Source of the DNA: an uncultured bacterium
GTDB lineage: Bacteria; Methylomirabilota; Methylomirabilia; Methylomirabilales; CSP1-5
Reading direction: 5' to 3'
Assembly (NCBI GenBank): GCA_964558395.1
Contig: CAZLDS010000009.1
Location: forward strand, 6,494-70,493
DNA: 64,000 nt
Shown here: in pieces, positions 3,553-57,741 of the stretch
How the letters are laid out: every line of letters begins with the position of its first letter
Position numbering within the stretch: the first letter of the stretch is position 1
The notes under the pieces: model-generated
Database searches by the model: none
What the model saw: the letters and a program-made list of their open reading frames with translations, nothing else
Told to the model about the DNA's origin: nothing
Position numbers and translations under genes: made by a program

Positions 3553-4335
3553 GTGTCAGTGACTGGCTTACCCGAGGAGTGCCAGCTGCGTATTTTGGTG
3601 GTGGACGACCAAGAGGAGAACTTGGACCTCTGAGAGGCCTTCCTGAGCGTGCACGACTACGAGGTGGTTCGGGCCCGGAATGGACAGGAAGCCTTTACGC
3701 AGGTCGCCCAGGGCCCTCCGGACCTGATCCTCCTCGATACCCATATGCCGCCGCCTGACGGCTTTCAGGTCTGCAAGCAACTCAAACAAAACGAGGAGAC
3801 CCGCCTGATCCCGATCATCATCGTGACAGCCTCCGGAGAACTGGAGAGCCGGACTCGAGGGATCGAGGCCGGGGCGGATGACCTCTCACGAAGCCGGTCC
3901 ACCGGGTGGAGCTGGATGCCCGCGTTCGGTCCCTCCTCAAACTGAAGCAATTCACCGATGAGCTCGAGAATTCCGAGACGGTCCTCATCAGTCTCGCCCT
4001 GGCTGTTGATCATGCGTACGCACCCCGAGGTCGGTGAGCGGATCTGCCAACCCCTGCGGTCGATGCAGCTCGTCCTTCCTATCATTCGCCACCACCACGA
4101 GCGGGGGGATGGCACTGGCTATCCCGACGGCCTCAAAGGCGTCTCACCGCCAGAATCCTCCAGATGGTGGATGTCTTTGATGCCCTCATCACGGATCGAC
4201 CCTATCGGGCCGGTCTCGCCACTGCCGAGGCCGCGAAGGTCCTCCGGGAAGAAACCACCAAGGTAGTACGACCCAAAGCTGCTGGCCGAATTTATTACCC
4301 TTCTCAGCGCGGATGGGGGATCTTTGAAGGGGGGG
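3553..4335 (+). pseudogene. Response regulator with HD-GYP (c-di-GMP phosphodiesterase) domain, degraded
   Basis: RILVVDD...PDLILLD..MP receiver with in-frame TGA at 3631; frameshift near 3882; HD core deleted; HHHERGDGTGYPDGLKG and VDVFDALITDRPYR in other frames; end approximate. Confidence 0.88.
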
Positions 4336-6720
4336 TCAGCGCCCCTCGTGGGGTAGCAGGGCTTCCTCCGGGGTAAGGGCAATCCCCGAGATTTCATCGA
4401 CGTTGCTGATAAATTTAAACTCGAGGTCCCGCCGAACCTCGTCGGGAAGATCCTCGAGGTCTTTGGCATTCCGATCGGGGAGAATCACAGTCTTCAACCC
4501 AGCTCGCTTGGCCGCCAACGCCTTTTCCTTGATGCCGCCCACTTGGAGGACCTGCCCCCGAAGAGTGATCTCTCCGGTCATCCCGACTCCGCTCTGAACA
4601 GGTCGTCCCTGCACGAGGGAAAGAAGGGCAGTATACATCGTAATCCCGGCCGAGGGTCCGTCTTTTGGGATCGCCGCGGCAGGGACATGCACGTGAACGT
4701 CCTGTTTCAGGAAGAAATCCTCGGGAAGGCCCAGCGCCTGGGACCGGCTCCGGACGGCGCTCAAGGCCGCCTCTGCTGATTCCTTCATCACCTCACCCAA
4801 GTGGCCGGTCAGGATGAGGTTCCCCTTCCCGGGCATCCGCGTCGCCTCGACAAAGATGATGTCACCCCCGGCGGCTGTCCAGGCGAGTCCAATAGCCACC
4901 CCCGGTTGAGCGGTGCGTTCTGCCACCTCCGAGAAGAACTTGACAGGGCCGAGAAGGGGGTGCAGATCTTCCGCCGTGATGTTCGCCGGATCGGTCCGCC
5001 CCTCCGATACCTCCTTCGCCACTGCGCGACAGATGGCGGCAATCTCCCTCTCCACGTTTCGCACTCCGGCCTCGCGTGTGTAGGACCTGATGATGGTTCG
5101 GAGGGCGTCGTCGGTGATGGTGAGCTGCGACGCCGTGAGGCCATGGGCATCGAGCTCCTTTGGGATCAGATAGCGCTTCGCAATGTGGAGCTTTTCCGAC
5201 TCGGTGTACCCTGGAAGCTCGAGGACCTCCATCCGGTCCCGCAGCGCCGGAGGAACAGGATCGAGGATATTGGCCGTCGCAATGAACATCACCCGGGACA
5301 GGTCGAATGGAATCTCCAAATAGTGGTCCGAAAAGCTCGCGTTTTGTTCCGGGTCCAGGACCTCGAGCAACGCGGAGGACGGGTCGCCACGAAAATCGGC
5401 CCCGATCTTGTCCACCTCATCCAACATGAAGACGGGATTATTACTGCCAGCCTTTCGGATACCCTGGATAATCCGGCCGGGGAGGGCGCCGACGTAGGTC
5501 CGGCGGTGGCCCCGGATTTCTGCCTCGTCTCGGATCCCCCCGAGGGACATCCGGATGAACTTTCGGCCCAACGCTGACGCGATCGAGTGGCCCAGGGAGG
5601 TCTTGCCGACCCCCGGTGGCCCGACGAAACACAGGATCGGTCCCTTCATGTCCTTCTTCAGCTTGCGAACCGCCAGGTACTCCAAGATCCGCTTTTTCAC
5701 CTTTTCCAGGTCGTAGTGATCCTGGTTCAGAATCTGCTCCGCCGCAGCGATGTCCAGGCGGTCCTCCGTGCTCTTGAGCCAGGGCAGCTCGAGGAGCCAG
5801 TCGAGATAGGTCCGAACCACGCTGTATTCTGCCGCGGCAGGTGGCATCCGGGAGAACCGACCGAGTTCCCGGAGCGCCACCTCTCGAACCTCATCGGGAA
5901 GGGGTGTTTCATCGATCCGTCGGCGAATTTCCTCCGCCTCCTGGGTCCGCTCGTCGCCCTCCCCCAACTCCTCTTGGATGGCTCTGAGTTGTTCTCGAAG
6001 GTAATACTCCCGCTGAGCTTTATCCATCCCTGCCTTGACCTGGGTCTGGATTTTATGGCTGAGCTCAAGCGCTTCGAGCTGTCGCGTCATGATTTCGGTG
6101 ATGCGCCTGAGGCGAGGCTTGATCTCCGTGATCTCGAGGACTTCTTGTTTTTCCTCTACGCTCAGGTTGAGGTTCGAGGCGATCATATCCGCCAGCGCCC
6201 CCCCTTCTTCGATGTTCAGGGCGAGGATGCCGAGCTCGGCGGGGAGGTTGGGGGAAAGCTCTACCACCTGCTGGAAGAGCCGGCGCAGATTGACCATCAG
6301 CGCCTCGACCTCCTTATCTCGCTCTCCCTCGTCGGGCTGGGGTTCGACTGTCGCGCGGAAGTACGGATCGGTCTGGGTGATCTGGGCCAGGCGGATCCGC
6401 TCGAGGCCTTGGGCCATGATGCTGATGGTCCCATCGGGGAGCTTGATCATCTTGGCGATGACCGCCGCGGTCCCCACCGAAAAGAAATCCTCCGGACGTG
6501 GATCTTCGATCTCTTTGGTCTTCAGGGCGACAACCCCGATGATCCGGTTGCCGATCACCGCCTCTTCAACGAGGCGGATCGTCTTCTCCTGGCCGACCAA
6601 GACGGGAAGAATCACGTAAGGGAAGAGCACACTCCCGCGGAGGGGAAGGATGGGTAGCTCCCCTGGGATCTGGGGACCAGTACCCGTGGGGCGGCTCTCT
6701 GCGGCTTCTTGTGCTGCCAT
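4336..6720 (-). CDS. lon: ATP-dependent Lon protease
   Basis: LPILPLRGSVLFP N-domain, Walker A GPPGVGKTS, PKDGPSAG catalytic Ser, GGIKEK; start ATG 6720 with GGAGG RBS. Confidence 0.97.
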   Translation of the reverse strand: MAAQEAAESRPTGTGPQIPGELPILPLRGSVLFPYVILPVLVGQEKTIRLVEEAVIGNRIIGVVALKTKEIEDPRPEDFFSVGTAAVIAKMIKLPDGTISIMAQGLERIRLAQITQTDPYFRATVEPQPDEGERDKEVEALMVNLRRLFQQVVELSPNLPAELGILALNIEEGGALADMIASNLNLSVEEKQEVLEITEIKPRLRRITEIMTRQLEALELSHKIQTQVKAGMDKAQREYYLREQLRAIQEELGEGDERTQEAEEIRRRIDETPLPDEVREVALRELGRFSRMPPAAAEYSVVRTYLDWLLELPWLKSTEDRLDIAAAEQILNQDHYDLEKVKKRILEYLAVRKLKKDMKGPILCFVGPPGVGKTSLGHSIASALGRKFIRMSLGGIRDEAEIRGHRRTYVGALPGRIIQGIRKAGSNNPVFMLDEVDKIGADFRGDPSSALLEVLDPEQNASFSDHYLEIPFDLSRVMFIATANILDPVPPALRDRMEVLELPGYTESEKLHIAKRYLIPKELDAHGLTASQLTITDDALRTIIRSYTREAGVRNVEREIAAICRAVAKEVSEGRTDPANITAEDLHPLLGPVKFFSEVAERTAQPGVAIGLAWTAAGGDIIFVEATRMPGKGNLILTGHLGEVMKESAEAALSAVRSRSQALGLPEDFFLKQDVHVHVPAAAIPKDGPSAGITMYTALLSLVQGRPVQSGVGMTGEITLRGQVLQVGGIKEKALAAKRAGLKTVILPDRNAKDLEDLPDEVRRDLEFKFISNVDEISGIALTPEEALLPHEGR

Positions 6721-43639: not shown

Positions 43640-43936
43640 ATGATGGAGGAGCGTCTGAACCGACTCCAGCGAGAGCAGCAATACATGAAATGGGTACTCG
43701 CCGTGGTTTTTGCCGCGGTCGTGGCTTGGGCGTTGTTCGGCCCGGGCGGAACCGGTCACTATCAGATTGTCTCGCCCAGCGACGCTTTTTTCGTCCATCG
43801 CCTGAATACATCCACGGGGGAAATACAGACCCTGGTTTTGGGGCGCCCCGATGTGGAGCGACAGCGATACGAGTTTCAGCAAATTGCCGTGTGGCCGGGG
43901 GGCCACGCGAAATCCGTGGAGAGGGATGAGCGATGA
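43640..43936 (+). CDS. Hypothetical single-TM protein
   Basis: AAGGAG RBS; TM WVLAVVFAAVVAWALF; ATGA overlap with the next gene. Confidence 0.65.
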   Translation: MMEERLNRLQREQQYMKWVLAVVFAAVVAWALFGPGGTGHYQIVSPSDAFFVHRLNTSTGEIQTLVLGRPDVERQRYEFQQIAVWPGGHAKSVERDER

Positions 43937-44529
43937 ACGGCGATCGATCCATCACACATTCACTGATCATGGTGGGATGCATGGTCTGGATAAGTCTGAC
44001 CCTGACGGGAACGGTGAGCGGGGTCGAACCCGGAATGGTGAGCGGAGTCGAACCCGTGAGCAAGGTCGAAACCATTGCGACCGCCAGAACCTCAGAGTCT
44101 GATAGCTACAGCCTCGCCGGGCTTTCGGGAGTCCATGTGGAGGTCTCGGGTGTCATGCCGCAATCCGCGCAACAGGACGTGACTGAGGATACCCTCCAAA
44201 CCGATGTGGAGATGCGACTCCAGAAGGCGGGGATCCGTGTCATGAATCCCGAAGACATTCTCCAAGTACCCGGTACTCCGCATCTGACGCTCAAGGTCAC
44301 GACCCACGAAGACCCCGAGCATTTCTTCTATGCCTTCGGCATTGAACTGGCCCTCGTCCAAGATGTCGTCCTCCTACGCGACACGAAATTAGTCGGTCGT
44401 GGGGCGACATGGAGCATGGGAGCCGTTGGCCTTGTGGGCACACAAAGTCTCCGTGACATCCGCTTCCATGTATGGGAAATGGTAGATCGGTTTGCGAAGG
44501 ACTACCACGCAGCGGAACACAAGCGGTAG
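43933..44529 (+). CDS. Hypothetical exported protein
   Basis: Hydrophobic N-terminus; VSGVEP duplication; plausible globular body. Confidence 0.7.
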   Translation: MNGDRSITHSLIMVGCMVWISLTLTGTVSGVEPGMVSGVEPVSKVETIATARTSESDSYSLAGLSGVHVEVSGVMPQSAQQDVTEDTLQTDVEMRLQKAGIRVMNPEDILQVPGTPHLTLKVTTHEDPEHFFYAFGIELALVQDVVLLRDTKLVGRGATWSMGAVGLVGTQSLRDIRFHVWEMVDRFAKDYHAAEHKR

Positions 44530-44539
44530 GGGAGAGAGA

Positions 44540-44869
44540 GCTGCCGAGGATCCAATCGCCACTACACGAGAAGCTCTCTTCCGAAAGTTGACCTCTGATT
44601 TCACGGATGAACATTGGCGCTGCCTTGAAGTGATGATGGCGCTTTCTCGTGGTACGACAAACGCTGTAGCGCAGAGCCACGTCTTAACGATGATGAGGCA
44701 GATGGGTGGTTTTGAGAGTTATCGTGGCGTACCCGACGAACTGAAGGCCAAGGGATTTATATTGATCGGAGGCATAGATTGCGTACGGAGAATGGAGCTC
44801 ACTAACTTGACTCCGGCATTCATCGACCTCATATGGGAGGAACTCAGAAGGCGAGGCGCCGTGCATTGA
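44540..44869 (+). pseudogene. Start-less hypothetical ORF fragment (probable island cargo)
   Basis: Open protein-like frame, but the only upstream start overlaps the previous gene. Confidence 0.35.
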
Positions 44870-44961
44870 AGGAATGAAGTAAGCGGCCCCGCCGGGTGAG
44901 TCACCAGCCGACGAGGCTTGGTTCCGCCGCAGAACGAGGCTGCGGGCATTTACCCGAGGAA

Positions 44962-45636
44962 ATGCCGATGGATATTCTGGATTTTCTCCCGCAAAACTGG
45001 GCAGCCCTCGGTGCAACACCGTGGGTGTTTGTGTCTCTCGTGGTGTTGTCCTTTTTAGTGGCTCTTCTTGTCGTTCGGTGGCGCTATGAGGGCATCGTCC
45101 AAACTCGTGGGGAGCAGCTGGAAGCATTACAGGACCGTCTCAACGCCAAAGACGAACAGCTCGACGCCAAAGACAAGCAGCTGGCTCATTACAGGGAACG
45201 CCTTCGTCTCACGCCAGCCACTGGAACTGCCTACTCCCGGCTCTCCAACGCCGAGTTACAGCAGCGGGCACTCCAGTTGGTTGCGAATATCCTCAGCTTC
45301 TTGGTTGAGAGAGACTGTGAGTCCACGTCGACCCTATTCCGCCGGTGGCATTCTCGTTATCAAGAACTCTCTGAGGAGGAGCGCCAGCAGGCATGGGTAG
45401 CTGAAACGAACGCAATGATGCAGCAGAGCTTACAAACAAATGCGGAGTACGACAGTCGCTTCAAGGTCGAATCGATTCTTCTTCGGGACGAGCTGCTTTC
45501 CCGTCTGCCACCCTACGCGAAAAATGAGCGCGAGTACAGCACATACGAGCACCCAACCAACCCAATTGGAATGGGCATGGTAGCGGATGACCTTGAGAGA
45601 CTCGCTAAGAGCCTTCCGCGAGAGGAGGGGAAATGA
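44962..45636 (+). CDS. Hypothetical TM plus coiled-coil protein (island cargo)
   Basis: GAGG RBS; TM WVFVSLVVLSFLVALLVV; LNAKDEQLDAKDKQL repeat. Confidence 0.7.
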   Translation: MPMDILDFLPQNWAALGATPWVFVSLVVLSFLVALLVVRWRYEGIVQTRGEQLEALQDRLNAKDEQLDAKDKQLAHYRERLRLTPATGTAYSRLSNAELQQRALQLVANILSFLVERDCESTSTLFRRWHSRYQELSEEERQQAWVAETNAMMQQSLQTNAEYDSRFKVESILLRDELLSRLPPYAKNEREYSTYEHPTNPIGMGMVADDLERLAKSLPREEGK

Positions 45637-45639
45637 GCG

Positions 45640-46738
45640 ATGAGCCACATATATCGACCGAAGGGCTGCAAGGTGTAGTGGGTCAAATGCTATGTCAACG
45701 GCAGGGCGATTCGGCAGAGCATACACACGCGAAAGAAGGGTGAGGCGAAAAAATTCTTGGACATTCGGGAGGGAGCGAAGGCCGAAGGGCGACCGCTCCC
45801 CGTCAGCTTTGACCGGGTAACGCACGCGGAACTCCAGAAAGATTTAGTCCAGCATTACGAGGTAACCCGAAAACAGGAATTGAGCGACGTGTATGGACGG
45901 CTCAAGCCGCTCGAGGAATTTTTCGGAGGGTACAGGGCCGTCAATATCGGTCCGCCGCAATTGAGCGCGTATGCTGCCCAAAGGCAAGAGGAGGGTGTGA
46001 GTAATGCGACCATAAACAGAGAATTGAGTGTCTTGCGAAAAATGCTGCGCCTAGCATACTATAACAAGAAGCCAGTCCGCGTTCCCCGATTCGAGTTATT
46101 GCAGGAAAGCCCTGCCCGGTCCGGCTTTTTTTGAATCCGACCAGTACCAGGCGGTCCGGCCTCACCTTCCGCCCGACCTTCAGACCATCTGTGACCTAGG
46201 GTATTTTTGCGGGTGGCGCGTTAGGAGCGAAATCCTTACGCTGAGCCGTTGTCAGTTGGACCTGAAACAAGGGACGCTGAGATTGAATCCAGGCGAAACG
46301 AAAAACAAAGATGGCAGGGTAGTCTATTTGAACCCCGAGCTACAGGCCGTGCTCCGAGAGCGACTCGCCTGCGTGGATCGGCTCTGCAAAGAGACCGGGA
46401 GTATCATCCCACGGGTGTTCCCCCATCTGACGGGCCGCTTTCGCGGGCAGCGTATCAAGGAGTTTCGCCGGGCGTGGCAGACGGCGTGCAAGAAGGCGGG
46501 GACCCCTTGGTTTCTCCGACACGATTTTAGACGGACGGCGGTCCGCAACATGGAACGGTCCGGCATATCCCGCTCCGTCGCTACCAAAATCACGGGACAT
46601 CGGAGCGAAGCGGTTTACCGCCGCTACGCAATAGTCTCAGACCAAGACCTCCAGGATGCGTCCAGGCGTCTCGGTCATAATTTAGCCATAGTTCGTGGAA
46701 AAGTTCTTGACACCCCCGTGCTAAGTGTAGAAAATTAG
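45640..46738 (+). pseudogene. Phage-type tyrosine integrase, disrupted
   Basis: In-frame TAG at 45676; SNATINRELSVL; frameshift in T7 run near 46130; CGWRVRSE, HDFRRTAVRN, ITGHRSEAVYRRY; ends 7 nt before tRNA-Val. Confidence 0.92.
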
Positions 46739-46745
46739 GCCTCCG

Positions 46746-46820
46746 GGGCGAATAGCTCAGCGGGAGAGCACCTGCCTTACAAGCAGGGGGTCACAGGTTC
46801 AAACCCTGTTTCGCCCACCA
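46746..46820 (+). tRNA. tRNA-Val (UAC)
   Basis: GGGCGAA/TTCGCCC acceptor stem, CCTGC-CTTACAA-GCAGG, GGTTCAAACC, encoded CCA. Confidence 0.97.
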
Positions 46821-46992
46821 GGTTACGGACTCGTCTTTGAGGTCATGGAGAAGTCTTCCCGTAACCTCAGCCAAGGAAAGAAGTTCTGGGCGGAGCCCTC
46901 TCAGGCGACTTAAGAACCACAGACGCGTATGCGGCTTGATGGACCATAACCGTCGTCAAGCTGATTAAATCGTCCAGCAGGGAGGATAAGCC

Positions 46993-47322
46993 ATGGAGAT
47001 TGTCTCACTCATTGTTGCCATTGTGGCGCTCGTGGTCGCGGTCCTGGCGTATGCCAGAACAGGGGGTATCCAAGAGCTGCGGAGTCAGGTGAGTGCCCTG
47101 GGCTCTACCACCGAGTCGCTGCGCGTGAAAACCACGGACACCCTGGACACCCTCCGGGGGAAGACGGCGGACACCTTGGAACGTCTTGAGAGGGCCGTCA
47201 GGGGACCCGGAGAGGGCCCACCACCCCCTGTTCGGGAGGAAAGCAGACCTGTGCCACCGGTGGAGAGACCCGTCGCGGAGCAAAAGAAACCGGACGTGGA
47301 GGATAAAAAAAAAGAGGCGTAA
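46993..47322 (+). CDS. Small membrane-anchored hypothetical protein
   Basis: GGAGG RBS; N-terminal TM; 11-residue repeat LRVKTTDTLDT/LRGKTADTLER. Confidence 0.75.
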   Translation: MEIVSLIVAIVALVVAVLAYARTGGIQELRSQVSALGSTTESLRVKTTDTLDTLRGKTADTLERLERAVRGPGEGPPPPVREESRPVPPVERPVAEQKKPDVEDKKKEA

Positions 47323-47401
47323 GGTCAACAAAGGCGAAAAGACCGGCTGATCGGCCTGGTCCCCGGCGAGGCCGATAGCCCTTGATGCCGGAGGTGGAAA
47401 G

Positions 47402-47938
47402 ATGACCAACGAAGAGCGCGAACATCGCGGCGGGCTGGGCAGGGCGATTCGTTCGATTGTCATTTGGCTGGTGGTCGTCATCGTGGCGGCGGGGGTAGGA
47501 TTCGGGACGGGGTATTTTCTGAGGGACAAAGAGGCGCGAGACCTTGAACAGTTCTCTGCAGAAGAGAAGGCGGAAATGCAGAAGCAGATCGCTTCGCTGG
47601 AGAAGCAGGTCTTGGAGGCCGAAAAGTCACAGCTCGAGCGAGCGCTCGCGCGTGCGAAGTTGAAGGCCGGTCTCGAGGAAGTTTTGGCCTCTCTCACGGG
47701 TGCATTGACCGAAGTCGAGCAGCGAAATTTTGGCAGGGCCAGCCAAAAGATCGAGGCGGCGAAAGGGGCCCTCTCGGCTGCGCCCAACACCGACGAATCT
47801 GTCCAGAAGGCCATCATGGCCAGGCTGGACACCATCCTGACGGGCCTCAAGAATCTTGACGTCAAGGTTCGGGAAGAGATCGCCACCCTGGCGAAGGAGC
47901 TGGAAGAAGGCCCGCTCCCTGGAAGCAAATCAAAGTAG
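47402..47938 (+). CDS. Membrane-anchored coiled-coil hypothetical protein
   Basis: GGAGG RBS; TM IVIWLVVVIVAAGVGFG; helical body. Confidence 0.75.
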   Translation: MTNEEREHRGGLGRAIRSIVIWLVVVIVAAGVGFGTGYFLRDKEARDLEQFSAEEKAEMQKQIASLEKQVLEAEKSQLERALARAKLKAGLEEVLASLTGALTEVEQRNFGRASQKIEAAKGALSAAPNTDESVQKAIMARLDTILTGLKNLDVKVREEIATLAKELEEGPLPGSKSK

Positions 47939-48291
47939 ACAAGTGAAGAAGAGCACCTCTCGAGCGATGCTGCAGCACACGCGCGGCGTGGGTCCGCGTG
48001 CGTCTCCCCCATTGCATCGAACCCGACTGTGATGTGTGTCTTTCAATTGAAGGCCGGGATGGGAGGAGCCCGAACCCATTGCAAGGGGGACCATGAATAC
48101 TCCTTGGCCCCTTTTCGTCCCTTGAAGGGGGTGTGGTCTGGACTTTGGCACGATTCATGTATGGTATGTGGGAGACTTCTTCATGGTACCCAAAGGGGGT
48201 CGACAAGGCTTGTTGGTGCGATTTAGTCTCATCCCGGTGAGGCTGGATGCCTTGACAGGTGGAAGAGAGACAGCACACGTGAGCACCTGTC

Positions 48292-48981
48292 ATGCATAGG
48301 GTTGCGAAGACCCCATTTCAGTTCGTCGGATGCACACAACTCCGGGAGGTCCTGGGGAGCAAGGCCGAGGACGAGCTTCAGCTTATGGATCTCTTGGAGG
48401 AAGTTCCCATCGAATCCATCTACCACCACACGCACCAGTACTTCCTGCGCCATCAATATCTCATGGGCCCGTACCCGAACGATTTTGCCACCTGGACCGC
48501 CACCCAGGTCCGAGATCGCGTGCTGGGGGAACGGCTCGGCGTCATCGACCCATACGAGTTTGAAACCCTGGAGGATCTGCGTGAGGCGCTCATCGTTGTG
48601 ATCGACGACCACCTCTCCCGGTTGCATGGTGTCCCCCGGGTTGAAGACGGAAAGCCATTTTACTTCATGCAGTCCCGCCTGGTAGAGGTCTCCACCGGGA
48701 TCGTCGCTCAGACGCTTCAGGAGTTCCGGGACGGACTCGCCAAGGTGGATGCGAGCGCCATCTACTACCACTTCTACGCGGCTCGGATCCGGGGGAACGG
48801 GCAGCCGGCAGGAGATTTCACGGTCTGGGTCGAACGGGGATTAGAGATGCCAGAGCTGGCCCAACAGCTGTGGACCGTTGACCCGTACATTTTCAGCCTC
48901 GAGCAGCTTCGCGATCGTCTTTTGGAGATTTGTGATACGTTCCTGACCCCAGGAGGGCAGACCGATGCCGATCTGTCTTGA
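48292..48981 (+). CDS. DUF5752-like protein associated with TreT
   Basis: Two internal repeats SIYHHTH..NDFATW and AIYYHF..GDFTVWV; overlaps the treT start. Confidence 0.8.
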   Translation: MHRVAKTPFQFVGCTQLREVLGSKAEDELQLMDLLEEVPIESIYHHTHQYFLRHQYLMGPYPNDFATWTATQVRDRVLGERLGVIDPYEFETLEDLREALIVVIDDHLSRLHGVPRVEDGKPFYFMQSRLVEVSTGIVAQTLQEFRDGLAKVDASAIYYHFYAARIRGNGQPAGDFTVWVERGLEMPELAQQLWTVDPYIFSLEQLRDRLLEICDTFLTPGGQTDADLS

Positions 48982-50197
48982 AGATTATCGGGATGTGGCC
49001 CCTCCGGGGACAGTGGATTTGCTCTATCGCTTGAGCGAAAAGGTCAAGGGGAAGAGCCTCCTCAACGTCAACTCAACCCGGTCCGGGGGCGGGGTGGCGG
49101 AGATTCTGAACCGCCTCGTCCCTTTGCTCGACGAACTAGGGGTGAAGGCGACGTGGGACGTCATCCAAGGTAGTGATGAATTCTTCGCAGTGACCAAAGG
49201 GTTTCACAACGCCCTGCAGGGGAACGGACAAGAAATCAGTGAACGGATGTACGAGGCGTATGTCGAGTGTAATCGCGAAAACGCCAAACGGATGCTTTTT
49301 GATGCAGACATGATCCTGATCCACGATCCTCAGCCGGCCGCCCTCGTTGACTTCGGCCCACGAGTCGGAAAGTGGGTCTGGCGGTGTCATCTCGACATCT
49401 CTGATCCGGCACGGCGCGTGTGGCGGTTCCTGCGAAACTACGTGGTGAAATATGATGCAGCCATCTTCTCCCTGCCCACCTTTGCGCAGAAGCTCCCGAT
49501 TCCTCAGTTCTTGGTTTACCCCTCTATCGATCCGTTGAGCGACAAGAATCGAGAGCTCAGCCGAAGGGAGGTCAACAAAATCCTAGACCGGTTGGGTGTT
49601 CCGCGGGACAAGTCGATCCTTTTGCAGGTCTCCCGTTTTGACCGATTCAAGGATTTCGTGGGGGTAATCCAGGCCTATCGGATTGTCAAGAGGCACAACG
49701 ATTGCCGCCTCATACTGGCGGGGGGTCCGGCGGCCGATGATCCGGAGGGCAAGATGGTCGTGGATGAAGTGAAAGAAGCCGCCGGCCAGGACCCGGATAT
49801 CCTTATCCTCGAGCTTCCCCCGGACTCAAACATCGAGATCAATGCCCTACAACGGGCGGCCACGATCGTCCTTCAAAAATCAATCAAAGAAGGCTTTGGC
49901 TTGACCGTGTCCGAGGCCATGTGGAAGGGGAAACCGGTCATCGGGGGTGACACCGGGGGGATTACAGTCCAGATCCTCTACTATCTCACCGGCTATACCG
50001 TCAGCTCGGTGGAGGGGGCGGCCTTCCGGATCCGGTATCTCCTGAACAACCCGCAGATCGCCCGGAAGATGGGCACGGACGCCAAGGAACACGTCCGGCG
50101 GAATTTCCTCATCACCCGCCATCTGACCGATTATCTGACGCTCATGGCTGCCCTCACCGACGGGGCGGAGAATTTGGACTTCCTTCCCTTTAGCTAG
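48965..50197 (+). CDS. treT: GT4 glycosyltransferase, TreT-type trehalose synthase
   Basis: NSTRSGGGVAEIL, IHDPQP, WRCHLD, QVSRFDRFK, QKSIKEGFGLTVSEAMWK. Confidence 0.88.
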   Translation: MPICLEDYRDVAPPGTVDLLYRLSEKVKGKSLLNVNSTRSGGGVAEILNRLVPLLDELGVKATWDVIQGSDEFFAVTKGFHNALQGNGQEISERMYEAYVECNRENAKRMLFDADMILIHDPQPAALVDFGPRVGKWVWRCHLDISDPARRVWRFLRNYVVKYDAAIFSLPTFAQKLPIPQFLVYPSIDPLSDKNRELSRREVNKILDRLGVPRDKSILLQVSRFDRFKDFVGVIQAYRIVKRHNDCRLILAGGPAADDPEGKMVVDEVKEAAGQDPDILILELPPDSNIEINALQRAATIVLQKSIKEGFGLTVSEAMWKGKPVIGGDTGGITVQILYYLTGYTVSSVEGAAFRIRYLLNNPQIARKMGTDAKEHVRRNFLITRHLTDYLTLMAALTDGAENLDFLPFS

Positions 50198-50500
50198 AAA
50201 CCCCCACATTTTCAGTGAGTTGCACGGCTTCCGTGGTGGGTTGCTGGCAAGTCACTGTCGCATCTATCCAGTTTGAAACATGGGTGACGGCGTCCCGCTC
50301 TTGCTTGGCTTCAGGGAACAGATAGCGTTCGGTGACACTGAGATCACTGTGCCCTAATAGCTTACGGATGGTTACTAAGTCCGCGCCATGTTCCAACGCC
50401 CGTGTAGCAAAGGTACGGCGCAAGTCGTGCGGGTGGAGGTTCACAATTCCCGCTCTCTTACATGCGCGGTCCCACGCTTTGTAAATGTCCTTGATGGGTT
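50190..50500 (-). pseudogene. Tyrosine integrase C-terminal fragment
   Basis: KAWDRACKRAGIVNLHPHDLRRTFATRALEHGADL..IRKLLGHSD...ERY; N-terminal part absent. Confidence 0.9.
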
Positions 50501-50634
50501 TAGACTCAACGCCTTTGGAATCCTCCGCAGAGAGATATTGGATAAAAGCAATAATTGACGTTCAAAGGACTGTACCAATTTGTCCCTTTCGGCCATGATA
50601 GCGATACCATCGCTTCTCACTCGAATCCTATATC

Positions 50635-51276
50635 TCACGGGTCCTCCCGATTCCGTTGGGACTCCACTGGCTCATCGAGATCGGACGAACTAAAGCTAAT
50701 GAGAATCAGAATCGTGTACTCATCGTATCTGGCCTTTCCGACACCTATAGGGACCTTGCCTACAAACGTACCGATCCGGCCTTCAAAGGCATAGATCTCT
50801 ACTTCGACGCGGCCCCGGTTGCGCACCGATTTATACAGGGCGATCTCGGGGAATGGAACCCCGAATACGGGAATCGGAAAGGCGGGGATGCCGAACAGCG
50901 TCGATGATTGGTCAACGCCGAGGACGTACGCGAAGACCTTTAGCTTCAGGTCTGACTCCGTCTGATCGGAGACAACTTTAACTCCATGTTCTTCGAGCCA
51001 GGTCATCACGAATGCCTTTGCAAAGGCCCGATCATCCGTGAGTGCAAACAGCTCGAGGGTAACGCGGCGTCCAATGAATCGCTGAACCTCGAGCTGGGCG
51101 ACTGCCCGCTGCAGCGACCGGACCAGTAACTGCTGTTCAAGGCTGGACCGTGCGGTCGTGGTCGCACGCACCGAGCTGTAACAGCCCGCACTCAAAAGCC
51201 AGCAAGCGATGGACCCCACGAGCAGTAGACTTGGCCCGATCCCAGGGTTTCGCTTACTGCGTAACTTCGTGCGCAT
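50635..51276 (-). CDS. Putative lipoprotein (DUF6655-like, tentative), element cargo
   Basis: Basic N-terminus, hydrophobic core, lipobox LSAG-C; start uncertain. Confidence 0.65.
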   Translation of the reverse strand: MRTKLRSKRNPGIGPSLLLVGSIACWLLSAGCYSSVRATTTARSSLEQQLLVRSLQRAVAQLEVQRFIGRRVTLELFALTDDRAFAKAFVMTWLEEHGVKVVSDQTESDLKLKVFAYVLGVDQSSTLFGIPAFPIPVFGVPFPEIALYKSVRNRGRVEVEIYAFEGRIGTFVGKVPIGVGKARYDEYTILILISFSSSDLDEPVESQRNREDP

Positions 51277-51754
51277 CAGCCACTCGGTAGGCCTGAAAAG
51301 AAAGGTACCCGTTGCCGGTCGATGTGTGTAACTACAGTACCACACCCGATTATACCTCATCCCAACTCTCGGGATAGCCTCCTTTGGTTGTTGCCGGTGT
51401 TACGGGTTTCGCAGACGGCCCTGCTTCATGGAGGTACCGCGACAAACCGCCTGAGAAGTTGGTGCATTCGGTGAAGCAGTTCGGCAGGGTTTGCGTATTC
51501 CTTCTCAAGTAGTGCACTCCGTAATGGTGAATTCATTCGTCAGTTCCTTGAGGCCCCAGTCGGCCCATTTCATACGCTAAATTTTCTGATAGGATAAACC
51601 TTTCATTTGTCGAAACGCTTCAAATAGTTCACGGGCTGACACTGAATCATCCCCATTATAGTAAGCGAGAATTTCCGATAGTGTTCAAGGACTTGTTGTG
51701 GAGATAATCTGTCCTTAACCTTTTGGAAGTTCATCCATCATAATCCCGGCTCTG

Positions 51755-51952
51755 TTAAGCCGATTTTTCGATATAGTCTCGCAAGTCTTGCAGTCTGAAC
51801 CGTAATGTGCCGCCGACCTTGCCATAGGGAATTTTTTTGTCTCGCGTCAGGCGGCGCAGGGTGACCTCGCTACACTTGAGGAAATCCATTGCTTGGCGAA
51901 AGTCCAAGTATTCCCACCTCCAAGGAACCTCATAATTTTCCCTTTTGACCAT
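51755..51952 (-). CDS. Excisionase-like helix-turn-helix protein
   Basis: YLDFRQAMDFLKCSEVTLRRL...IPYGKVGGTLRF..QDLRDYI; strong RBS. Confidence 0.88.
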   Translation of the reverse strand: MVKRENYEVPWRWEYLDFRQAMDFLKCSEVTLRRLTRDKKIPYGKVGGTLRFRLQDLRDYIEKSA

Positions 51953-52205
51953 GCTTCCTCACCTCCCCCCAAAAGAGAACGGGGGGCCAACAGCCTGTGT
52001 AAGGCATCGGCCCCCCGTTCAAAAGGCACTTATTAAGTTTCAAAGATCATACCCCAAGCGACATCGCCGTGTGTCTGAAAAGACGAGAGCCGCCACAATT
52101 TCAACACCTTGTGACGGCTCCCTAAATGGCTACTAAGAGAATTTGGACTTCCTTCCCTTTAGTTGACTTCCCTCGCTAGGTACGATATAGACTGACTCTT
52201 GCTGC

Positions 52206-52283
52206 GGGGCCGTAGTGTAGCCTGGTTAACACGCCGGCCTGTCAAGCCGGAGATCGCGGGTTCAAGTCCCGTCGGCCCCGCCA
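52206..52283 (+). tRNA. tRNA-Asp (GUC)
   Basis: GGGGCCG/CGGCCCC acceptor stem, CCGGC-CTGTCAA-GCCGG, GGTTCAAGTCC, CCA. Confidence 0.97.
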
Positions 52284-52371
52284 CCCAACGCCTGACACCT
52301 GGGTTACCACCTGTCTTTCAATCCGAAATCCCCAATCCGCAATCGGAATTCTCGGAGCTCGGACTTTCAAA

Positions 52372-53247
52372 TTAGTACGACATGGCGAAGCCGGCGGTGA
52401 CGACGCCTGTAAAGTTGTCACCCGCGTTGATCGCTTTCGTGCTGTTCCCGAGGAAAAAGAAGTCCCCCTTCACATAGGCCTCCCACGAGCCGTAGTCGGC
52501 CGGGATAAAAGCCAGAGGCACGCTCGCCTTGATGCCGAGGTCAAAGTAGCCGAACGTGGAATCCTCACCGGTGTTGGGGTTTTCATAGTAATCCCCGAGG
52601 CTTAAACCCAGTGTCAGTGGGAGAGAGAGTGTCACCGGGTATTTCTCGCCCTCAAACACGGTGTAGCTCGGCTCGAGGTCCAGCTGAAAGTACGTCCCGA
52701 GGTCGGGTCCAGTCGCCCCGGCACCCTGGATCTCGAACGCGACCAGGATGTGAGGTGACATGGCAAAGGGCCCCAGCAGGTCGCTATCATCATAGCTGAG
52801 CCCAAACGCGATCTCCTGTGTTGAGCCGAAGGAATCGTTGGGGCTGGTGTAGAGGGTATAGACCGTATCTAGGCTAAAATCTTCAAACAACCCGAAATTC
52901 AGCCCGGCGATAAAGTCGAACTCGTACCACGCCGTCGGATCGGCCGTCCCGGGTGATACCGACTGGATGCTGTTCCAGATCCCCAGCGTCGCACCCGCGC
53001 TCGTGAGTCCACTCGAGCCTTCATACAGGTTAAAGTTGACATCGGCCCACGGCTGGCCAATGAAGCCGTTTTTCGACTGCAGGAGCCCGCGGAAGAAATA
53101 CGCGCTGGTGAAATCCATCCCGGCGTCGAACGAGACCTTGCCCGTGTTGGGTTCCTCGGCTGCGATTGCCGGCGTGCCGCATAAGAGAGTGGCCATCGCC
53201 AGCGCGCTGGCCACGAGAGCTATCCGTCCCCGCGTTTCTTGTCCCAT
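52372..53247 (-). CDS. Outer-membrane beta-barrel/porin-like protein (TorF-like, tentative)
   Basis: Signal peptide ending AIA-AEE; SAYFFRG motif; alternating aromatic/Gly strands; C-terminal Tyr; AGGAGG RBS. Confidence 0.75.
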   Translation of the reverse strand: MGQETRGRIALVASALAMATLLCGTPAIAAEEPNTGKVSFDAGMDFTSAYFFRGLLQSKNGFIGQPWADVNFNLYEGSSGLTSAGATLGIWNSIQSVSPGTADPTAWYEFDFIAGLNFGLFEDFSLDTVYTLYTSPNDSFGSTQEIAFGLSYDDSDLLGPFAMSPHILVAFEIQGAGATGPDLGTYFQLDLEPSYTVFEGEKYPVTLSLPLTLGLSLGDYYENPNTGEDSTFGYFDLGIKASVPLAFIPADYGSWEAYVKGDFFFLGNSTKAINAGDNFTGVVTAGFAMSY

Positions 53248-53289: not shown

Positions 53290-53357
53290 AGAAAAAGAAA
53301 AGGGCGCCTCGTATCTGAGGCGCCCTTGCCTCCCCTTCCCCCTGCGCCGTTGCAGGG
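53290..53357 (-). promoter_or_regulatory. ANTAR-target RNA element (twin hexaloop hairpins overlapping an intrinsic terminator)
   Basis: P1 CCCUGC-AACGGC-GCAGGG; P2 GAGGC-AAGGGC-GCCUC (A1/G4 loops); P2 overlaps terminator AAGGGCGCCUC-agauac-GAGGCGCCCUU-UUCUUUUU. Confidence 0.9.
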
Positions 53358-53376
53358 GCGGTGCCTTACTCTGCGG

Positions 53377-53991
53377 TCAACGCTCCGCTCGCGCGGGCTT
53401 CGCAGCCGTCGAAACGTCCGCGACGGCTTCGGCAACCAGAATGGCCTCGGCAATCTGCTGCATGGGGGTCCGGGTCTTCATGCTTTGCCGTTGGATGGAG
53501 TGAAAGGCCTCCGCTTCGGTGATCCCCTGCCGGGCCATGAGCAGCCCTTTGGCCCGTTCGATCTTCTTGCGGGCCTCGAGGGCTGTTCGCATATGCTGGT
53601 TATCCTTCCAGAGCGCCATGAACTCCCGGAACCTGGCGATGGCCAACTCGATGGCTGGCTGCAGCTCTTGTCCACGCACCGGCTTGACCAGGCAGGCCAT
53701 CACGCCTGCCTGGGTGGCCTGGCGGATCATCGTGGCGTCGAGCTGGCGGGCCAGGAGGATGACGGGGGTCGGGGCCTGCTTCAAGATATGCGTTGCCGCG
53801 GCCATTCCGTTCGCTCCCTCCAAGTCCGCCGCCAGAAAGAGCAAGTCCGGTTGGAGCGTCTGGACGAGCTGCAATCCCTCGTCGATATCCCTCGCCTCCC
53901 CAACCACCGCGTAACCCAGCTCCCTCAGCGTCTCCTTGAGGAAGGTCCGCGCATACGCGCTGTCCTCGATGAGCAGCAGGCGATAGGACAC
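53377..53991 (-). CDS. Pseudo-receiver/ANTAR antitermination regulator
   Basis: ANTAR motif RKKIERAKGLLM..QGITEAEAF..IQRQSM; receiver fold LLLIED...PDLLFLAA...LVKP with the phospho-Asp replaced by Ala. Confidence 0.93.
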   Translation of the reverse strand: MSYRLLLIEDSAYARTFLKETLRELGYAVVGEARDIDEGLQLVQTLQPDLLFLAADLEGANGMAAATHILKQAPTPVILLARQLDATMIRQATQAGVMACLVKPVRGQELQPAIELAIARFREFMALWKDNQHMRTALEARKKIERAKGLLMARQGITEAEAFHSIQRQSMKTRTPMQQIAEAILVAEAVADVSTAAKPARAER

Positions 53992-53995
53992 GGTC

Positions 53996-55612
53996 TTACT
54001 TCCCCGAACCCTTGGCTGGCGCCGGGGGGGGGTGGGTCGCTTCCTGGGCCCCAGGGATCTGACCCGCCACCTTCTTGAGGATTCCTTCCGGATCCATCTT
54101 GGCGAAGTCGAGGAACTCTCTGAGGAGGGGGAGCGCTGCCCCGGCACTGAGGAAGGCATTCACCACCCGACCGATGCCGGATCCATCCTGGCCTGGTCCC
54201 TCGCCGTTCCCTCCACCCCAGCCGTGCACGTCCAACACCTTGATGCTGTCGATCTGTCGGGCCGGCGCCATCATCTCGCCTAGCATCTGCGGAGCCTGGT
54301 CGATAAAGCGCAGCAGGACATCCCGCTGAATGACTTTCTCTTCCAGGTTGTTCTCGCTCTGCACCATTTTGAGGCGGGCGGCTGCGTCCGCCTCTCCCTC
54401 CCGCTGCTTGGAGAGGGCCAGCCGTTCAATGGCGCGTGCCTTTTGCTCGGCGACCTCGTGTTCCCGGAGGGCCTGGATGAGGGCGATCGCCTTCTGTCGC
54501 TCGGCCGCCGCTCGCTCCGCCACCGTGATCACCTCCTGGGCCGCCTGCTCCTTGCTGGCGTCGGCCTCCAAGCGGCGCTTTTCCTCTTCGATCCGCTGCC
54601 GCTCCTTAACCAGAATCGCGATTTCTTTGGCGCGCTTGGTCTCCTCGACCACGCGCTCCTTGTCGATCTCGGCGGTCTCTCGAAGCTCCGTCTGTTGCAT
54701 CAGATAGGCCTCACGGCGGATCTCTGCCTCGCGGATCGTTTTTTCCTGGGCGATCTCTGCCTCGCGGACTGCCCGCTGCTTGGCGATCTCCGCCTCTCGA
54801 GACCGTCGCTCCTGCTCGTACCGGTACTCTTCCGTATCGGCTTTTTGCAGAGCCCGGTTCGTCTCCACCTGGCGAATCTGCTCGGCCTCGGCGAATTCCC
54901 GGTCCTGGTCGAGCGACAGCTTGAGCTTGACCGCCTCCACGTCTTTCCGCTTGATGGCCACCTCGGTGTTCCGTTCAATCTCGTTCCGCTCCCGGTTGCG
55001 TTGCGAGACCTGGGCGGAAATCTGGCGGAGGCCCTCCGCGTCAAAGATGTTGTTGGGATCGAGCTGAGCGCGGTCGGTCTGGTCGAGGTGAAAGAGCGAG
55101 ACATCCTCGAGGCCGAGCCCGTTGAGCATCAACGGTTCCTGCAGGTCCCCCATGACGGCCAGGGCGAACCCACGGCGGTTCTCGTGCATCTGTTCCATCT
55201 CCATCCGCGCTGCCGCCGATCGCAGTGCCGACACCAACTTCTCCTCCACCAGTGACTGGATCCCCTCGGCGCTGAAGGACTTATCCCCCAAGCTGCGGGA
55301 GGCCCGTTCGATGCTCTCGGCGTCGGCGGTGATCTTCACGTAGAACTCGGTCCCGATGTCGACCCGCAGCCGGTCCTTGGTGATAAAGGCCTCCTTCTTC
55401 GCCTTGAAGACTTGAAGCTTGAACGTCTCGAGGGAGATCCACTGAATGCTTTGGACCCAGGGGAGCACCACGGCACCGCCGTCGATGACCACCTTCTTGC
55501 CGCCCAAGCCGGTCCGGATGAAGGCCATATTGACCGGCGTCTTCACGTACCAGGCGGTGAACGCCGCGATGGCAATCCCTGCTAGGATTAAAAGTAAAAT
55601 AATCCATCCCAT
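53996..55612 (-). CDS. Flotillin (SPFH/band-7 family) protein
   Basis: N-terminal TM, AFIRTGLGG, ITKDRLRVD, NNIFDAEG, EA-rich coiled coil, IDSIKV. Confidence 0.93.
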   Translation of the reverse strand: MGWIILLLILAGIAIAAFTAWYVKTPVNMAFIRTGLGGKKVVIDGGAVVLPWVQSIQWISLETFKLQVFKAKKEAFITKDRLRVDIGTEFYVKITADAESIERASRSLGDKSFSAEGIQSLVEEKLVSALRSAAARMEMEQMHENRRGFALAVMGDLQEPLMLNGLGLEDVSLFHLDQTDRAQLDPNNIFDAEGLRQISAQVSQRNRERNEIERNTEVAIKRKDVEAVKLKLSLDQDREFAEAEQIRQVETNRALQKADTEEYRYEQERRSREAEIAKQRAVREAEIAQEKTIREAEIRREAYLMQQTELRETAEIDKERVVEETKRAKEIAILVKERQRIEEEKRRLEADASKEQAAQEVITVAERAAAERQKAIALIQALREHEVAEQKARAIERLALSKQREGEADAAARLKMVQSENNLEEKVIQRDVLLRFIDQAPQMLGEMMAPARQIDSIKVLDVHGWGGGNGEGPGQDGSGIGRVVNAFLSAGAALPLLREFLDFAKMDPEGILKKVAGQIPGAQEATHPPPAPAKGSGK

Positions 55613-55642: not shown

Positions 55643-57505
55643 TCAGCGCTCCGCCGTGACCACGGCCTCTTCGATGCCGTACATGTACAGCAGGTTCTCC
55701 ACCGTTTCCCGGAACTGGTCCGGGTTCCCCTTCTTGAAAGAGAAGGAATCGTCGCTAAAACGTGGGGTGTGTTCATACATCTCATTAAAGTCCCGAGGCG
55801 TGTTGGGATAGTCGTGACAGAGGCGCTGCCACATGTCCCGCAAAACTCGCCTGTCCACGCCCCGCACCACGATGCGGAACGGCTGTTCCTTGGTGGCCGG
55901 CCCCGCCGTAGCGACGGGAGCGGCAGCCGCCCGGAACGGCTCGGCCCGGCCGGCACCAGGTGGCGTGCGGGACACGCCAGGACGGGGTGGGATCCGCGTC
56001 CCTCCTCCGGCGGGGATGAAAGCCGCGGCAGGACGGCGCGTGACCTCTTCCGGTGCGGGCTCGGGCTTCCTTCCCCCGGGAGCTGCGGCCATCCCAGGCG
56101 CAGTGGCGCCCAGTCGCATGCGGCCTGAGGACGCGATCTGGAAGTCGGGATACGCTAACAATCCGTGCTCGTTAATGTCCAGACCCTCCATCTCCTCCTC
56201 GGCGGGAACCCGAATGCCCAGGAGGCCCTTGAGGAGTCCCCAGCCGACAAGAGAAGCCGGGAAGATGAACGCGCCCACTGCGAGCACCCCGATCAACTGT
56301 GCTTGGAAGAGCCCCGACCCGCCGCCAAAGAAGAGTCCGTTGCCGGTGGTACCGGGGCTAAATACGTCCTGGGCGAACAGGCCGACCGCGATGGTGCCCC
56401 AGGCGCCGCAGGTCAGGTGAGCGGAAACCGCCCCAACCGGGTCGTCCAGCCTGATGCGATCGAAAAACAGCACCGAGAGGACCACGAGGATCCCAGCCAC
56501 AAGGCCAATCGCCAGCGAGCTCCCCAGGCTGACAAAGGCACAGGGGGCCGTGATGGCGACCAGGCCGGCCACGCCGCCGTTCAGCCCCATCGTCAGATCC
56601 GGCTTGCCCAAGAGGACCCACGCTGTGAAGGTGGCGGCAATCACCCCCGCGGCCGCGGCGGTGTTTGTGGTGGCGGCGATGTGGCCGATAGCCCCCGCAT
56701 CCGCCGCCATGGTACTGCCCGGGTTAAACCCGAACCACCCGAACCACAGTATAAAGACGCCCAGTGTGGCCGAGGTGAGGCTGTGGCCGGGAATCGGGTT
56801 GATGCGCCCATCCTTTGTAAATTTGCCGATGCGGGGCCCCAGCATGATGGCCCCAGCAAGTGCCGCCCACCCGCCGACCGAGTGGACCACGGTCGAGCCG
56901 GCAAAGTCCCACATCCCGCGTTCGGCAAGCCAACCGCCCCCCCAGATCCAGTGGCCCGTGATCGGATAGAGCAGGCCTGCCATGAGAAAGGAAAAGAGGA
57001 AGAAGCTACTGAACTTGATCCGCTCGGCGACGGCTCCCGAGACGATCGTCGCCGCGGTACCGGCAAAGACCATCTGGAAAAGGAATTTCGCTTCCAAGGG
57101 CACGCCGGTCCAGCTAATGGCGCTATAGACGCCTTGGTAGGCATCTCCGGTGGCCGGGCTGTTGTCCGCGCCGCTCAGAAACCACAGTCCTTTCAGGCCC
57201 ATAAACCACGAGCCGTCTCCAAACATGATGCCCCAGCCCACGACCAGAAAGCCGATGGCTGTGATGGCGTACACCACAAAATTCTTCGCGAGAATATTGA
57301 CGGTGTTCTTGGCGCGGGAAAAACCCGACTCGAGCAGGGCGAACCCCGCGGCCATGAACATGACGAGAAAAGCGGTGAGCAGGGTCCACACGGTGTCAAT
57401 GGCCACCTTGGATGCGGCCTCTTCGGCGGCAAAGGCGACCCCTGGGAGAAGAATCATCTTGCATGCTACCAGTCCAACGGTGCGTGCCCCTTTCCTCCAA
57501 GTCAC
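55643..57505 (-). CDS. amtB: Ammonium transporter (Amt) with about 165-aa C-terminal extension
   Basis: MAAGFALLESG, SGAVAER, DFAGSTVVH, WFGWFGFN, DDPVGAVSAH, EGLDINEHG..AYP; start GTG 57505 with GGGAGG RBS. Confidence 0.95.
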   Translation of the reverse strand: MTWRKGARTVGLVACKMILLPGVAFAAEEAASKVAIDTVWTLLTAFLVMFMAAGFALLESGFSRAKNTVNILAKNFVVYAITAIGFLVVGWGIMFGDGSWFMGLKGLWFLSGADNSPATGDAYQGVYSAISWTGVPLEAKFLFQMVFAGTAATIVSGAVAERIKFSSFFLFSFLMAGLLYPITGHWIWGGGWLAERGMWDFAGSTVVHSVGGWAALAGAIMLGPRIGKFTKDGRINPIPGHSLTSATLGVFILWFGWFGFNPGSTMAADAGAIGHIAATTNTAAAAGVIAATFTAWVLLGKPDLTMGLNGGVAGLVAITAPCAFVSLGSSLAIGLVAGILVVLSVLFFDRIRLDDPVGAVSAHLTCGAWGTIAVGLFAQDVFSPGTTGNGLFFGGGSGLFQAQLIGVLAVGAFIFPASLVGWGLLKGLLGIRVPAEEEMEGLDINEHGLLAYPDFQIASSGRMRLGATAPGMAAAPGGRKPEPAPEEVTRRPAAAFIPAGGGTRIPPRPGVSRTPPGAGRAEPFRAAAAPVATAGPATKEQPFRIVVRGVDRRVLRDMWQRLCHDYPNTPRDFNEMYEHTPRFSDDSFSFKKGNPDQFRETVENLLYMYGIEEAVVTAER

Positions 57506-57590: not shown

Positions 57591-57741
57591 AGCATGCAGC
57601 ATGCCAGTCGAGGTACGGAATCGTAACCCGCTGACAATGCAGGGAAAGTTGACCAAAGGGGGGGAGCACGATGGGAGGTTCATCGCTTAAAAAGAGGGCA
57701 GAAAGTTGGCCTCTGGGCGCGGGCTGCTTACGGCATAAGCA
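57591..57741 (-). promoter_or_regulatory. Sigma54 promoter of the amt operon with NtrC-like upstream sites
   Basis: TGGCATGCTGCATGCT (57606 to 57591, GG-N10-GC); palindrome TGCTTA-N5-TAAGCA (57725-57741); CGC-N11-GCA (57684-57700). Confidence 0.7.

Follow-up and report, generated by a model that had tools for sequence, protein, structure and literature searches.

A tethered C-terminal domain of Amt ammonium channels that matches no catalogued family, and its flotillin neighbour in Methylomirabilota

Introduction

What might an ammonium channel do with a long C-terminal extension that resembles no known regulator? The question is raised by an amt gene in the DNA analysed here, a window of 64,000 nucleotides from an uncultured bacterium of the Methylomirabilota (GenBank assembly GCA_964558395.1, contig CAZLDS010000009.1). 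Control of prokaryotic Amt proteins is so far known as plugging by GlnK, and those fusions that have been characterised bear a kinase or a cyclase; Amt-PII fusions also exist. A first-pass annotation, made from the sequence alone, had described the extension as an unrecognised domain on a Pro/Ala/Gly-rich tether. Here we ask whether this domain is real, on which proteins it occurs and what it may bind.

The amt gene and its channel core

A continuous minus-strand open reading frame of 664 aa (57637-55643) encodes an Amt core followed by GLDINEHGLLAYPDF, a linker and a terminal segment, and closes with a TGA stop codon at 55645-55643. PF00909 spans residues 83-496 of this frame (Pfam). There are two candidate starts, TTG at 57637 (664 aa) and GTG at 57505 (620 aa). 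The GTG is probably the true start because a 97% identical homologue begins there, a GGAGG site lies before it and a sigma-54-like motif falls within the longer frame. The gene would then occupy 55643..57505 on the minus strand and encode 620 aa including a signal peptide. A search with the domain as a single sequence returned 24 longer proteins (16 representatives at 50% clustering), 23 of them with PF00909, and in run X1, possibly the source sample, one contig spans 55478-57700 with 10 differences and no gaps. These results exclude a frameshift or stop-codon read-through as the source of the extension. The named close homologues come from Methylomirabilales or NC10, which would place the host there as well.

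The core (56150..57391, minus strand) matches PF00909 (E 5e-118; 394.7 bits, cut-off 23.2) and TIGR00836 (405.3 bits, cut-off 343.3) and is of the Glu-type subfamily (LLESG), not the AmtB type. The pore histidines that the first-pass annotation had called intact are both present, at 56884 in the motif STVVH and at 56419 in VSAH, and the other pore residues are canonical. Assigned by what we take to be their E. coli AmtB equivalents, these comprise the twin histidines H252 and H407, the Phe gate F191 and F304, the Trp/Ser site W232 and S308, and the conserved D244. Such motifs are no proof of transport because Ks-Amt5, as described in an excerpt of PMC11152129, retains all of them yet does not translocate ammonium. 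A single Amt was found in the host genome (97.8% complete), and as the only one it therefore probably has to transport.

The linker and the C-terminal domain

Core and domain are joined by an Ala/Pro/Gly/Arg-rich linker of 84 aa (55895..56146, minus strand; Ala/Pro/Gly 47/84, Arg 10/84) with R-x-P-P motifs (RIPP, RTPP) and EPFR. In a structure model of the full-length protein (pTM 0.73) the core and the domain are confident and the linker stays below pLDDT 50; it is predicted to be a disordered tether. Planctomycete-type carriers have a median linker of 23 aa (n=103 rows), and EP[RK] occurs in 82 of these rows compared with 3.1 in shuffles. In the remaining carriers, the group to which the window belongs, the median is 74.5 aa and R[TKRVI]PP occurs in 44 of 52 rows compared with 3.4 in shuffles, a set that includes near-copies and three misfiled Planctomycete rows.

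The terminal segment is a domain of 83 aa (55646..55894, minus strand) with a predicted beta-alpha-alpha-beta-beta-alpha-beta order. AlphaFold2 run on an alignment of 25 rows gave an ordered model (pLDDT 93.4, pTM 0.83), in keeping with the globular look noted in the first-pass annotation, and the predicted fold is an alpha/beta sandwich that includes one additional helix, helix 2. In comparisons with four relatives, the domain has a dN/dS of 0.12-0.23, between those of the core (0.05-0.07) and the linker (0.26-0.69), values which indicate that the domain is under purifying selection. Trp22 (55831) and Gly56 (55729) are invariant in 99 rows, and Phe6, Cys26 (55819), Phe36, Tyr40, Phe51 and Phe53 are at least 90% conserved in them; in an alignment of 55 rows the Cys is kept in 51. 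It is the only Cys, and the HMA-type CxxC metal-binding motif is absent. As read from the alignment, the conserved residues mostly form the hydrophobic core, and the open face of the sheet is polar and clade-variable.

The domain matches no catalogued Pfam, NCBIfam or PDB family above threshold. Pfam gave no family at cut-off for the terminal segment (best E 0.066) and NCBIfam none; no kinase, cyclase or other recognised transducer family exceeded the cut-off on the tail in Pfam, NCBIfam or searches with family members, and the domain has no recognisable catalytic motif. The tail was thus rightly described at first as lacking PII, kinase, GGDEF and chemoreceptor motifs. Against the sequences of solved structures the domain profile reached at best E 0.008, with designed repeat proteins, and no single stretch was significant alone. 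Foldseek with the domain model gave nothing at E <=0.001 in the PDB or among viral models, and a wide structure search with VIA, in which the absence of a family excludes nothing, gave no chain at Z >=8. Its top match, eIF4E5 (Z 6.4, rmsd 2.8, 77 aligned), was not accepted as a relative. Weak likenesses were seen to a domain of the copper-ATPase ATP7B (Z 5.7, rmsd 2.9, 61 aligned), to aspartate kinase (ACT; Z 5.6, rmsd 3.6, 69 aligned), to CutA1 (Z 5.0, rmsd 3.2, 67 aligned) and, with Foldseek, to SbtB (E 0.15, TM 0.41) and designed ferredoxin folds (TM about 0.5 or below). A hit to NitrOD5, found in a single one of 25 members (E 0.0012), was taken as chance. Atlas proposed DUF6956 (PF22273) for the window domain at 0.79, which we treat as a lead only; Pfam searches that allowed E up to 1 matched it in none of 25 and none of 30 members, and Atlas gave no usable match for a Planctomycete domain.

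ACT, HMA, ferredoxin-like and DUF6956 domains resemble the window domain in size and strand-helix order (Z 5-6). They differ from it in that there is no significant sequence or structure match, helix 2 is extra and CxxC is absent, and the scores lie within the range of chance or of a common arrangement. An Amt with GlnK or PII likewise presents a small, loosely ferredoxin-like alpha/beta domain on the channel's cytoplasmic face. Unlike PII, the window domain has the extra helix and no T-loop-sized insertion, it gives no match to PF00543 and its profile aligns with the PII of the same genome at an hhalign probability of 0.1%; the carriers also retain ordinary PII genes. We read the predicted fold as a common alpha/beta sandwich with one added helix and not as a member of the ACT, HMA or PII families. 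In the literature covered (titles and abstract openings, mostly outside subscription journals) neither the domain nor a bacterial Amt-flotillin pair is described.

Distribution and exchange of the domain

A profile search with the domain found 71 proteins, 69 with PF00909 and the other two fragments, and their named sources include NC10, Tectimicrobiota and Gemmataceae. The domain is present in eight of the 251 genomes of the window's phylum and in seven of 41 close relatives, 36 of which have an Amt. A scan with a Planctomycete-type alignment yielded 68 loci, 66 titled Planctomycetota and two Alcaligenaceae, in which 70 of 71 domain copies are in frame with an Amt core by HMM, the other copy lying at a contig edge. 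At the two loci titled Alcaligenaceae (L037, L052), Amt, tail and PII group within Gemmataceae, which wrong labelling of the record, mis-binning or transfer would each explain. In the family to which one Gemmataceae genome belongs, the domain was matched in 108 of 121 genomes, and all 25 of the remaining matches of that scan that were checked lie in Amt frames. A sample of 401 Planctomycetota genomes, with 13 candidates scored per genome, gave at least two matches and may undercount, and a metagenome scan gave one locus (L147) from 129 candidates.

Two proteins of 163-166 aa carry the domain without an Amt core, so its expected confinement to Amt holds for nearly all copies and fails for these. 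Both have two hydrophobic segments followed by the domain, keep the linker motif and the membrane anchor and are 55% identical to each other. They are encoded at L175:5411-5911 (+) and L176:328-819 (-) in Gemmataceae-family genomes that also have a longer carrier. An NfeD_membrane match on one of them (24.6, cut-off 26) is below the cut-off and was rejected. At L175 an SPFH gene (3863-4732) lies about 680 bp from the stand-alone carrier, with an apparent partial second SPFH copy nearby.

Carriers occur on both sides of the deepest split of an Amt tree, that is, in both deep subfamilies. This tree holds 137 rows left from 185 after near-duplicate removal, 113 with the domain and 24 without; the latter are from Methylomirabilota only and are not a census. 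It implies nine changes of tail state, at least six forced by strong branches. The window protein and an AmtB-type protein of genome G002 are 41% identical in the core and 80% in the domain; compared with a protein of its own subfamily in G019, its core is 76% and its domain 51% identical. Paralogs of one genome show the same pattern (core 40% and domain 70% identical in G002; core 34% and domain 51% at L035). In trees of 22 rows, that of the core splits the two subfamilies cleanly and rejects groups based on the type of domain (p-AU 4e-88), and that of the domain rejects the subfamily split (p-AU 3e-45); these rows were chosen after the trees had been seen, with groups that had not been named beforehand, and the trees are unrooted. 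Because the domain is present on both Amt subfamilies and its tree conflicts with that of the channels, we infer from these unrooted trees that it has moved between channels repeatedly. Tail-less proteins nest beside tailed ones, with near-identical cores with and without the tail, which indicates that loss of the tail or exchange of the core has also been recent.

These patterns bear on whether the tail does anything at all. A functionless extension, produced by read-through or carried along as a neutral hitchhiker, would agree with its being dispensable, given the relatives that have an Amt and lack the domain and the near-identical cores of both states. Against this stand the lower dN/dS of the domain than of the linker, its confident ordered prediction (pLDDT 93), the invariant Trp and Gly, the homologues in other genomes and the near-universal presence in one Gemmataceae family. 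We consider this explanation highly improbable and largely refuted.

A second possibility is that the domain binds itself or the channel, with three copies capping an Amt trimer or dimers cross-linking trimers into patches that a flotillin only stabilises in some lineages. The near-exclusive occurrence on Amt (69/71; 70/71) and the same-genome paralogs with similar tails on different cores would be expected from this, and the two non-Amt carriers keep an anchor and a linker motif. The conserved residues, however, are mostly buried and the open sheet face varies between clades, and in the full-length model, which comes with pTM 0.73 and no PAE and therefore gives no direct measure of docking, the linker is predicted to be disordered. 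We regard self- or channel binding as unlikely.

The promoter and the ANTAR gene

Upstream of amt lies a sigma-54-type promoter-like motif, TGGCA-N7-TGCT (57591..57606, minus strand), assigned by what we take to be the sigma-54 consensus. Such a motif is found upstream in seven of nine amt loci examined, where about 0.03 would be expected per shuffled region. Two genes downstream of amt is a gene for an ANTAR-domain response regulator (53377..54159, minus strand, for the ORF as listed; the true start is probably further in), which is likely the third gene of the operon and is followed by a terminator. The motif and the terminator suggest a nitrogen-regulated amt-flotillin-ANTAR transcript. The ANTAR gene is not generally linked to the domain: the idea that homologues might be found only at Amt/ANTAR loci failed, with an ANTAR gene at three of eight related Methylomirabilota loci and no ANTAR cluster at the Planctomycete loci.

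The gap between the ANTAR and porin genes (53290-53365, minus strand) holds a hairpin with the loop AACGGC followed by the hairpin GAGGC-AAGGGC-GCCTC, which overlaps a strong terminator at 53327-53300 (fold z -5.3). Both hairpins are kept in genomes G012 and G009 and, with no match in Rfam, fit what we take to be the ANTAR dual-hairpin antiterminator pattern, which suggests that the regulator may control the porin gene. Elsewhere in the window, the stretch 43933-52280 contains a tRNA (52206-52280), integrase-like fragments read from the sequence (45757-46738, 50190-50444), lower GC around 50400-52400 and a DUF5752-TreT pair (48292-50197), suggesting an integration hot spot beside that pair.

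With an ANTAR gene so close to amt, the protein might be a transceptor signalling to the ANTAR regulator, its domain sensing a small ligand or redox state or serving as an output module (ACT/HMA-like). The faint structural resemblance to ACT-containing and metal-binding domains (Z 5.2-5.7) and the conserved Cys would suit such a role, as would the core, in which motif mapping places the four N1 ligand positions of ammonium receptors at E103, N119, T197 and S200. The full published N1/N2 signature of these receptors (AmR), QX6EX15NX2D[F/T]X54-60TX2[S/T], is matched by 0 of 185 Amt cores. At the signature positions the window protein shows A, E, N, V, Y, T and S, with Ala for Gln and Val for Asp, and most carriers (88/113) have an AmtB-type core without the Glu. 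The lone Cys without CxxC and the patchy occurrence of the ANTAR gene also speak against sensing, and a disordered linker of this length would be poorly suited to conformational signalling. We therefore hold this reading to be quite unlikely. Excerpts of PMC11152129 and PMC10433425 describe Ks-Amt5 (Amt-histidine kinase) and Sd-Amt1 (Amt-HAMP-GGDEF), which like the window protein are C-terminal cytoplasmic fusions with canonical pore motifs. The window protein differs from them in that it has no catalytic or HAMP domain, departs from the N1/N2 signature and has a linker predicted to be disordered, not helical.

PII genes at carrier loci

The window genome has two PII genes, on another contig. 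At Planctomycete carrier loci the gene immediately downstream encodes PII in 57 of 68 and in 21 of 25 cases (overlapping sets; at least four of the 11 exceptions among the 68 end within 304 bp), and a PII gene is nearby at three of eight related Methylomirabilota loci. The idea that the tail replaces GlnK was ruled out, since PII adjoins most carriers. PII is modified at Tyr51; in the PII proteins beside tailed Planctomycete Amts (L029-L096, L148-L174) a Tyr is found at this usual position in four of 81, and the residue is mostly Phe, Val or Ile.

The domain may then act on the Amt-GlnK switch in all carriers, either by binding the side of a docked PII trimer or by gating access, with the flotillin a lineage-specific operon passenger. 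Besides the adjacency, the grafting of the domain onto cores that are only 34-41% identical would make sense if its partner is one that every Amt has, and PII proteins mostly without the Tyr make extra control plausible. Adjacency of amt and glnK is, however, the prokaryote default according to an excerpt of PMC3831643 and so is not specific. In the window's genus, moreover, PII adjoins four of four full tail-less Glu-type amt genes (L127, L130-L132) and none of five tailed ones, and covariation between domain and GlnK in 60 pairs, a weak test, was not above shuffles (maximum z 7.96, shuffled mean 7.46). Overall, an action through PII is conceivable, if on the unlikely side.

Directly before tailed Amts without a downstream glnK, three loci (L072, L086, L090) have a gene for a PP2C phosphatase-Ser/Thr kinase fusion, and a fourth phosphatase-kinase fragment lies upstream at the edge of L040. 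Control of the tail by phosphorylation is a possibility here.

The flotillin neighbour

The most informative neighbour of amt is a gene that the first-pass annotation did not mention. It encodes a flotillin (Band_7 and Flot; a cluster member is named YqiK) at 53996..55612 on the minus strand and starts 30 bp after the amt stop. A close ortholog of it (>=65% identity) is found in exactly the eight of 251 phylum genomes, and exactly the seven of 41 relatives, that have the domain; 26 other phylum genomes have only flotillin paralogs that are 33-45% identical. In the window and in seven of eight related Methylomirabilota loci it is the next gene after the tail. One of these, in G228, belongs to another order; its Amt is of the other subfamily, with 40% identity in the core and 41% in the domain. 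The metagenome locus L147 shows this gene order again, with 28% identity in the domain, 60% in the flotillin and 31 bp between the two genes; its domain group includes a protein named from Tectimicrobiota. The Methylomirabilota carrier without an adjoining flotillin, at locus L013 of G002, has one elsewhere in the genome. No flotillin was seen beside a tail-less Amt in 40 loci (L097-L136), many with flanks of only 1.5 kb, and no close flotillin in five of five Planctomycete carrier genomes or in 97 Planctomycete loci.

At the syntenic locus of genome G008, domain and flotillin are both missing. The Amt linker there (L136, G008:C51, 3960-5390) runs into sequence like the end of a flotillin gene, the ANTAR gene is also gone and amt is frameshifted. 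This has the look of a single deletion, with amt itself frameshifted. Since the tail is encoded at the 3' end of amt, 30 bp ahead of the flotillin gene, linkage alone would move or delete both together.

Flotillin genes are known behind NfeD genes, in the NfeD-SPFH pairs yqiJ-yqiK and yuaF-floT, and the NfeD domain is an all-beta OB-type barrel. As in these pairs, a flotillin gene in the window directly follows one for a membrane protein whose C-terminal domain is small and soluble; this domain differs in being predicted alpha/beta, and the tail gave no NfeD match. The idea that Amt fills an NfeD slot gained no support: YqiJ_OB is not in the genome, and reading upstream of two unlinked flotillin paralogs showed no NfeD-like ORF. 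Such unlinked paralogs (L145, L146; about 35% identical) sit behind a different conserved gene pair, whose products, judged by reading, are presumably a Tm-1-like ATP-binding protein and one with a TIM barrel.

We tentatively favour the reading that the tethered domain is a docking handle, in the window's lineage for the flotillin encoded downstream, which would make it an interaction module as the first-pass annotation had proposed. A docking module fits better than a conformationally coupled transducer because no catalytic motif is recognisable in the domain, its tether is predicted to be disordered and varies in length, and it sits on either Amt subfamily. Flotillin was chosen as the partner because the gene order is kept across an order boundary, a swap of the core and a domain identity of 28%, with a plant system as analogy. 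In Arabidopsis under high ammonium, AMT1;3 clusters and is internalised with involvement of Flot1 (Wang et al. 2013, as cited in an excerpt of PMC8644385), and human flotillin is described in part of PMC13000311 as a dome over a 30-nm membrane patch. The window shares with AMT1;3-Flot1 the tie between an ammonium transporter and a flotillin; it differs in being bacterial, in a link that is genomic only and in its dedicated fused domain, and no endocytosis is implied.

By the docking reading, each Amt trimer would show three domain handles in the cytoplasm. Under nitrogen limitation amt and the flotillin gene would be co-transcribed from the sigma-54-type promoter, and through the handles Amt would join a flotillin assembly and be clustered or sequestered there, most likely shutting uptake down once ammonium returns. 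In Planctomycetes the same fold, on its linker of 23 aa, would dock a different partner, with GlnK the most likely one. The fullest version, an adaptor grafted repeatedly on either Amt subfamily that hands the channel to a flotillin cage for ammonium-triggered sequestration, as a bacterial counterpart of plant AMT1 clustering control, seems to us rather unlikely as a whole. The main weaknesses of flotillin docking are the physical adjacency of tail and flotillin gene and the absence of this flotillin from most family members. The eight genomes are also kin (three genera), L147 is the one case from outside, and the fold is no guide to function (best Z 6.4). PII binding and self-association are close rivals of it, and these readings are not mutually exclusive.

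Conclusion

The analysis confirms an uncatalogued domain family on a known kind of protein; its mechanism is proposed. The first-pass description of the protein held in the main: the extension is an in-frame, unrecognised domain of 83 aa on an 84-aa tether, and sequence and structure searches found no match to a known domain. The window tail is a different fused module from those characterised so far, non-catalytic and exchanged between two deep Amt subfamilies. The large Planctomycete family in which the domain is near-universal presumably includes cultured members, which makes the proposal testable. Even without the flotillin link, there is a new domain family to catalogue. If that link is physical, a bacterial flotillin would gain a specific cargo and a docking domain, and its selection of clients would be directly testable.
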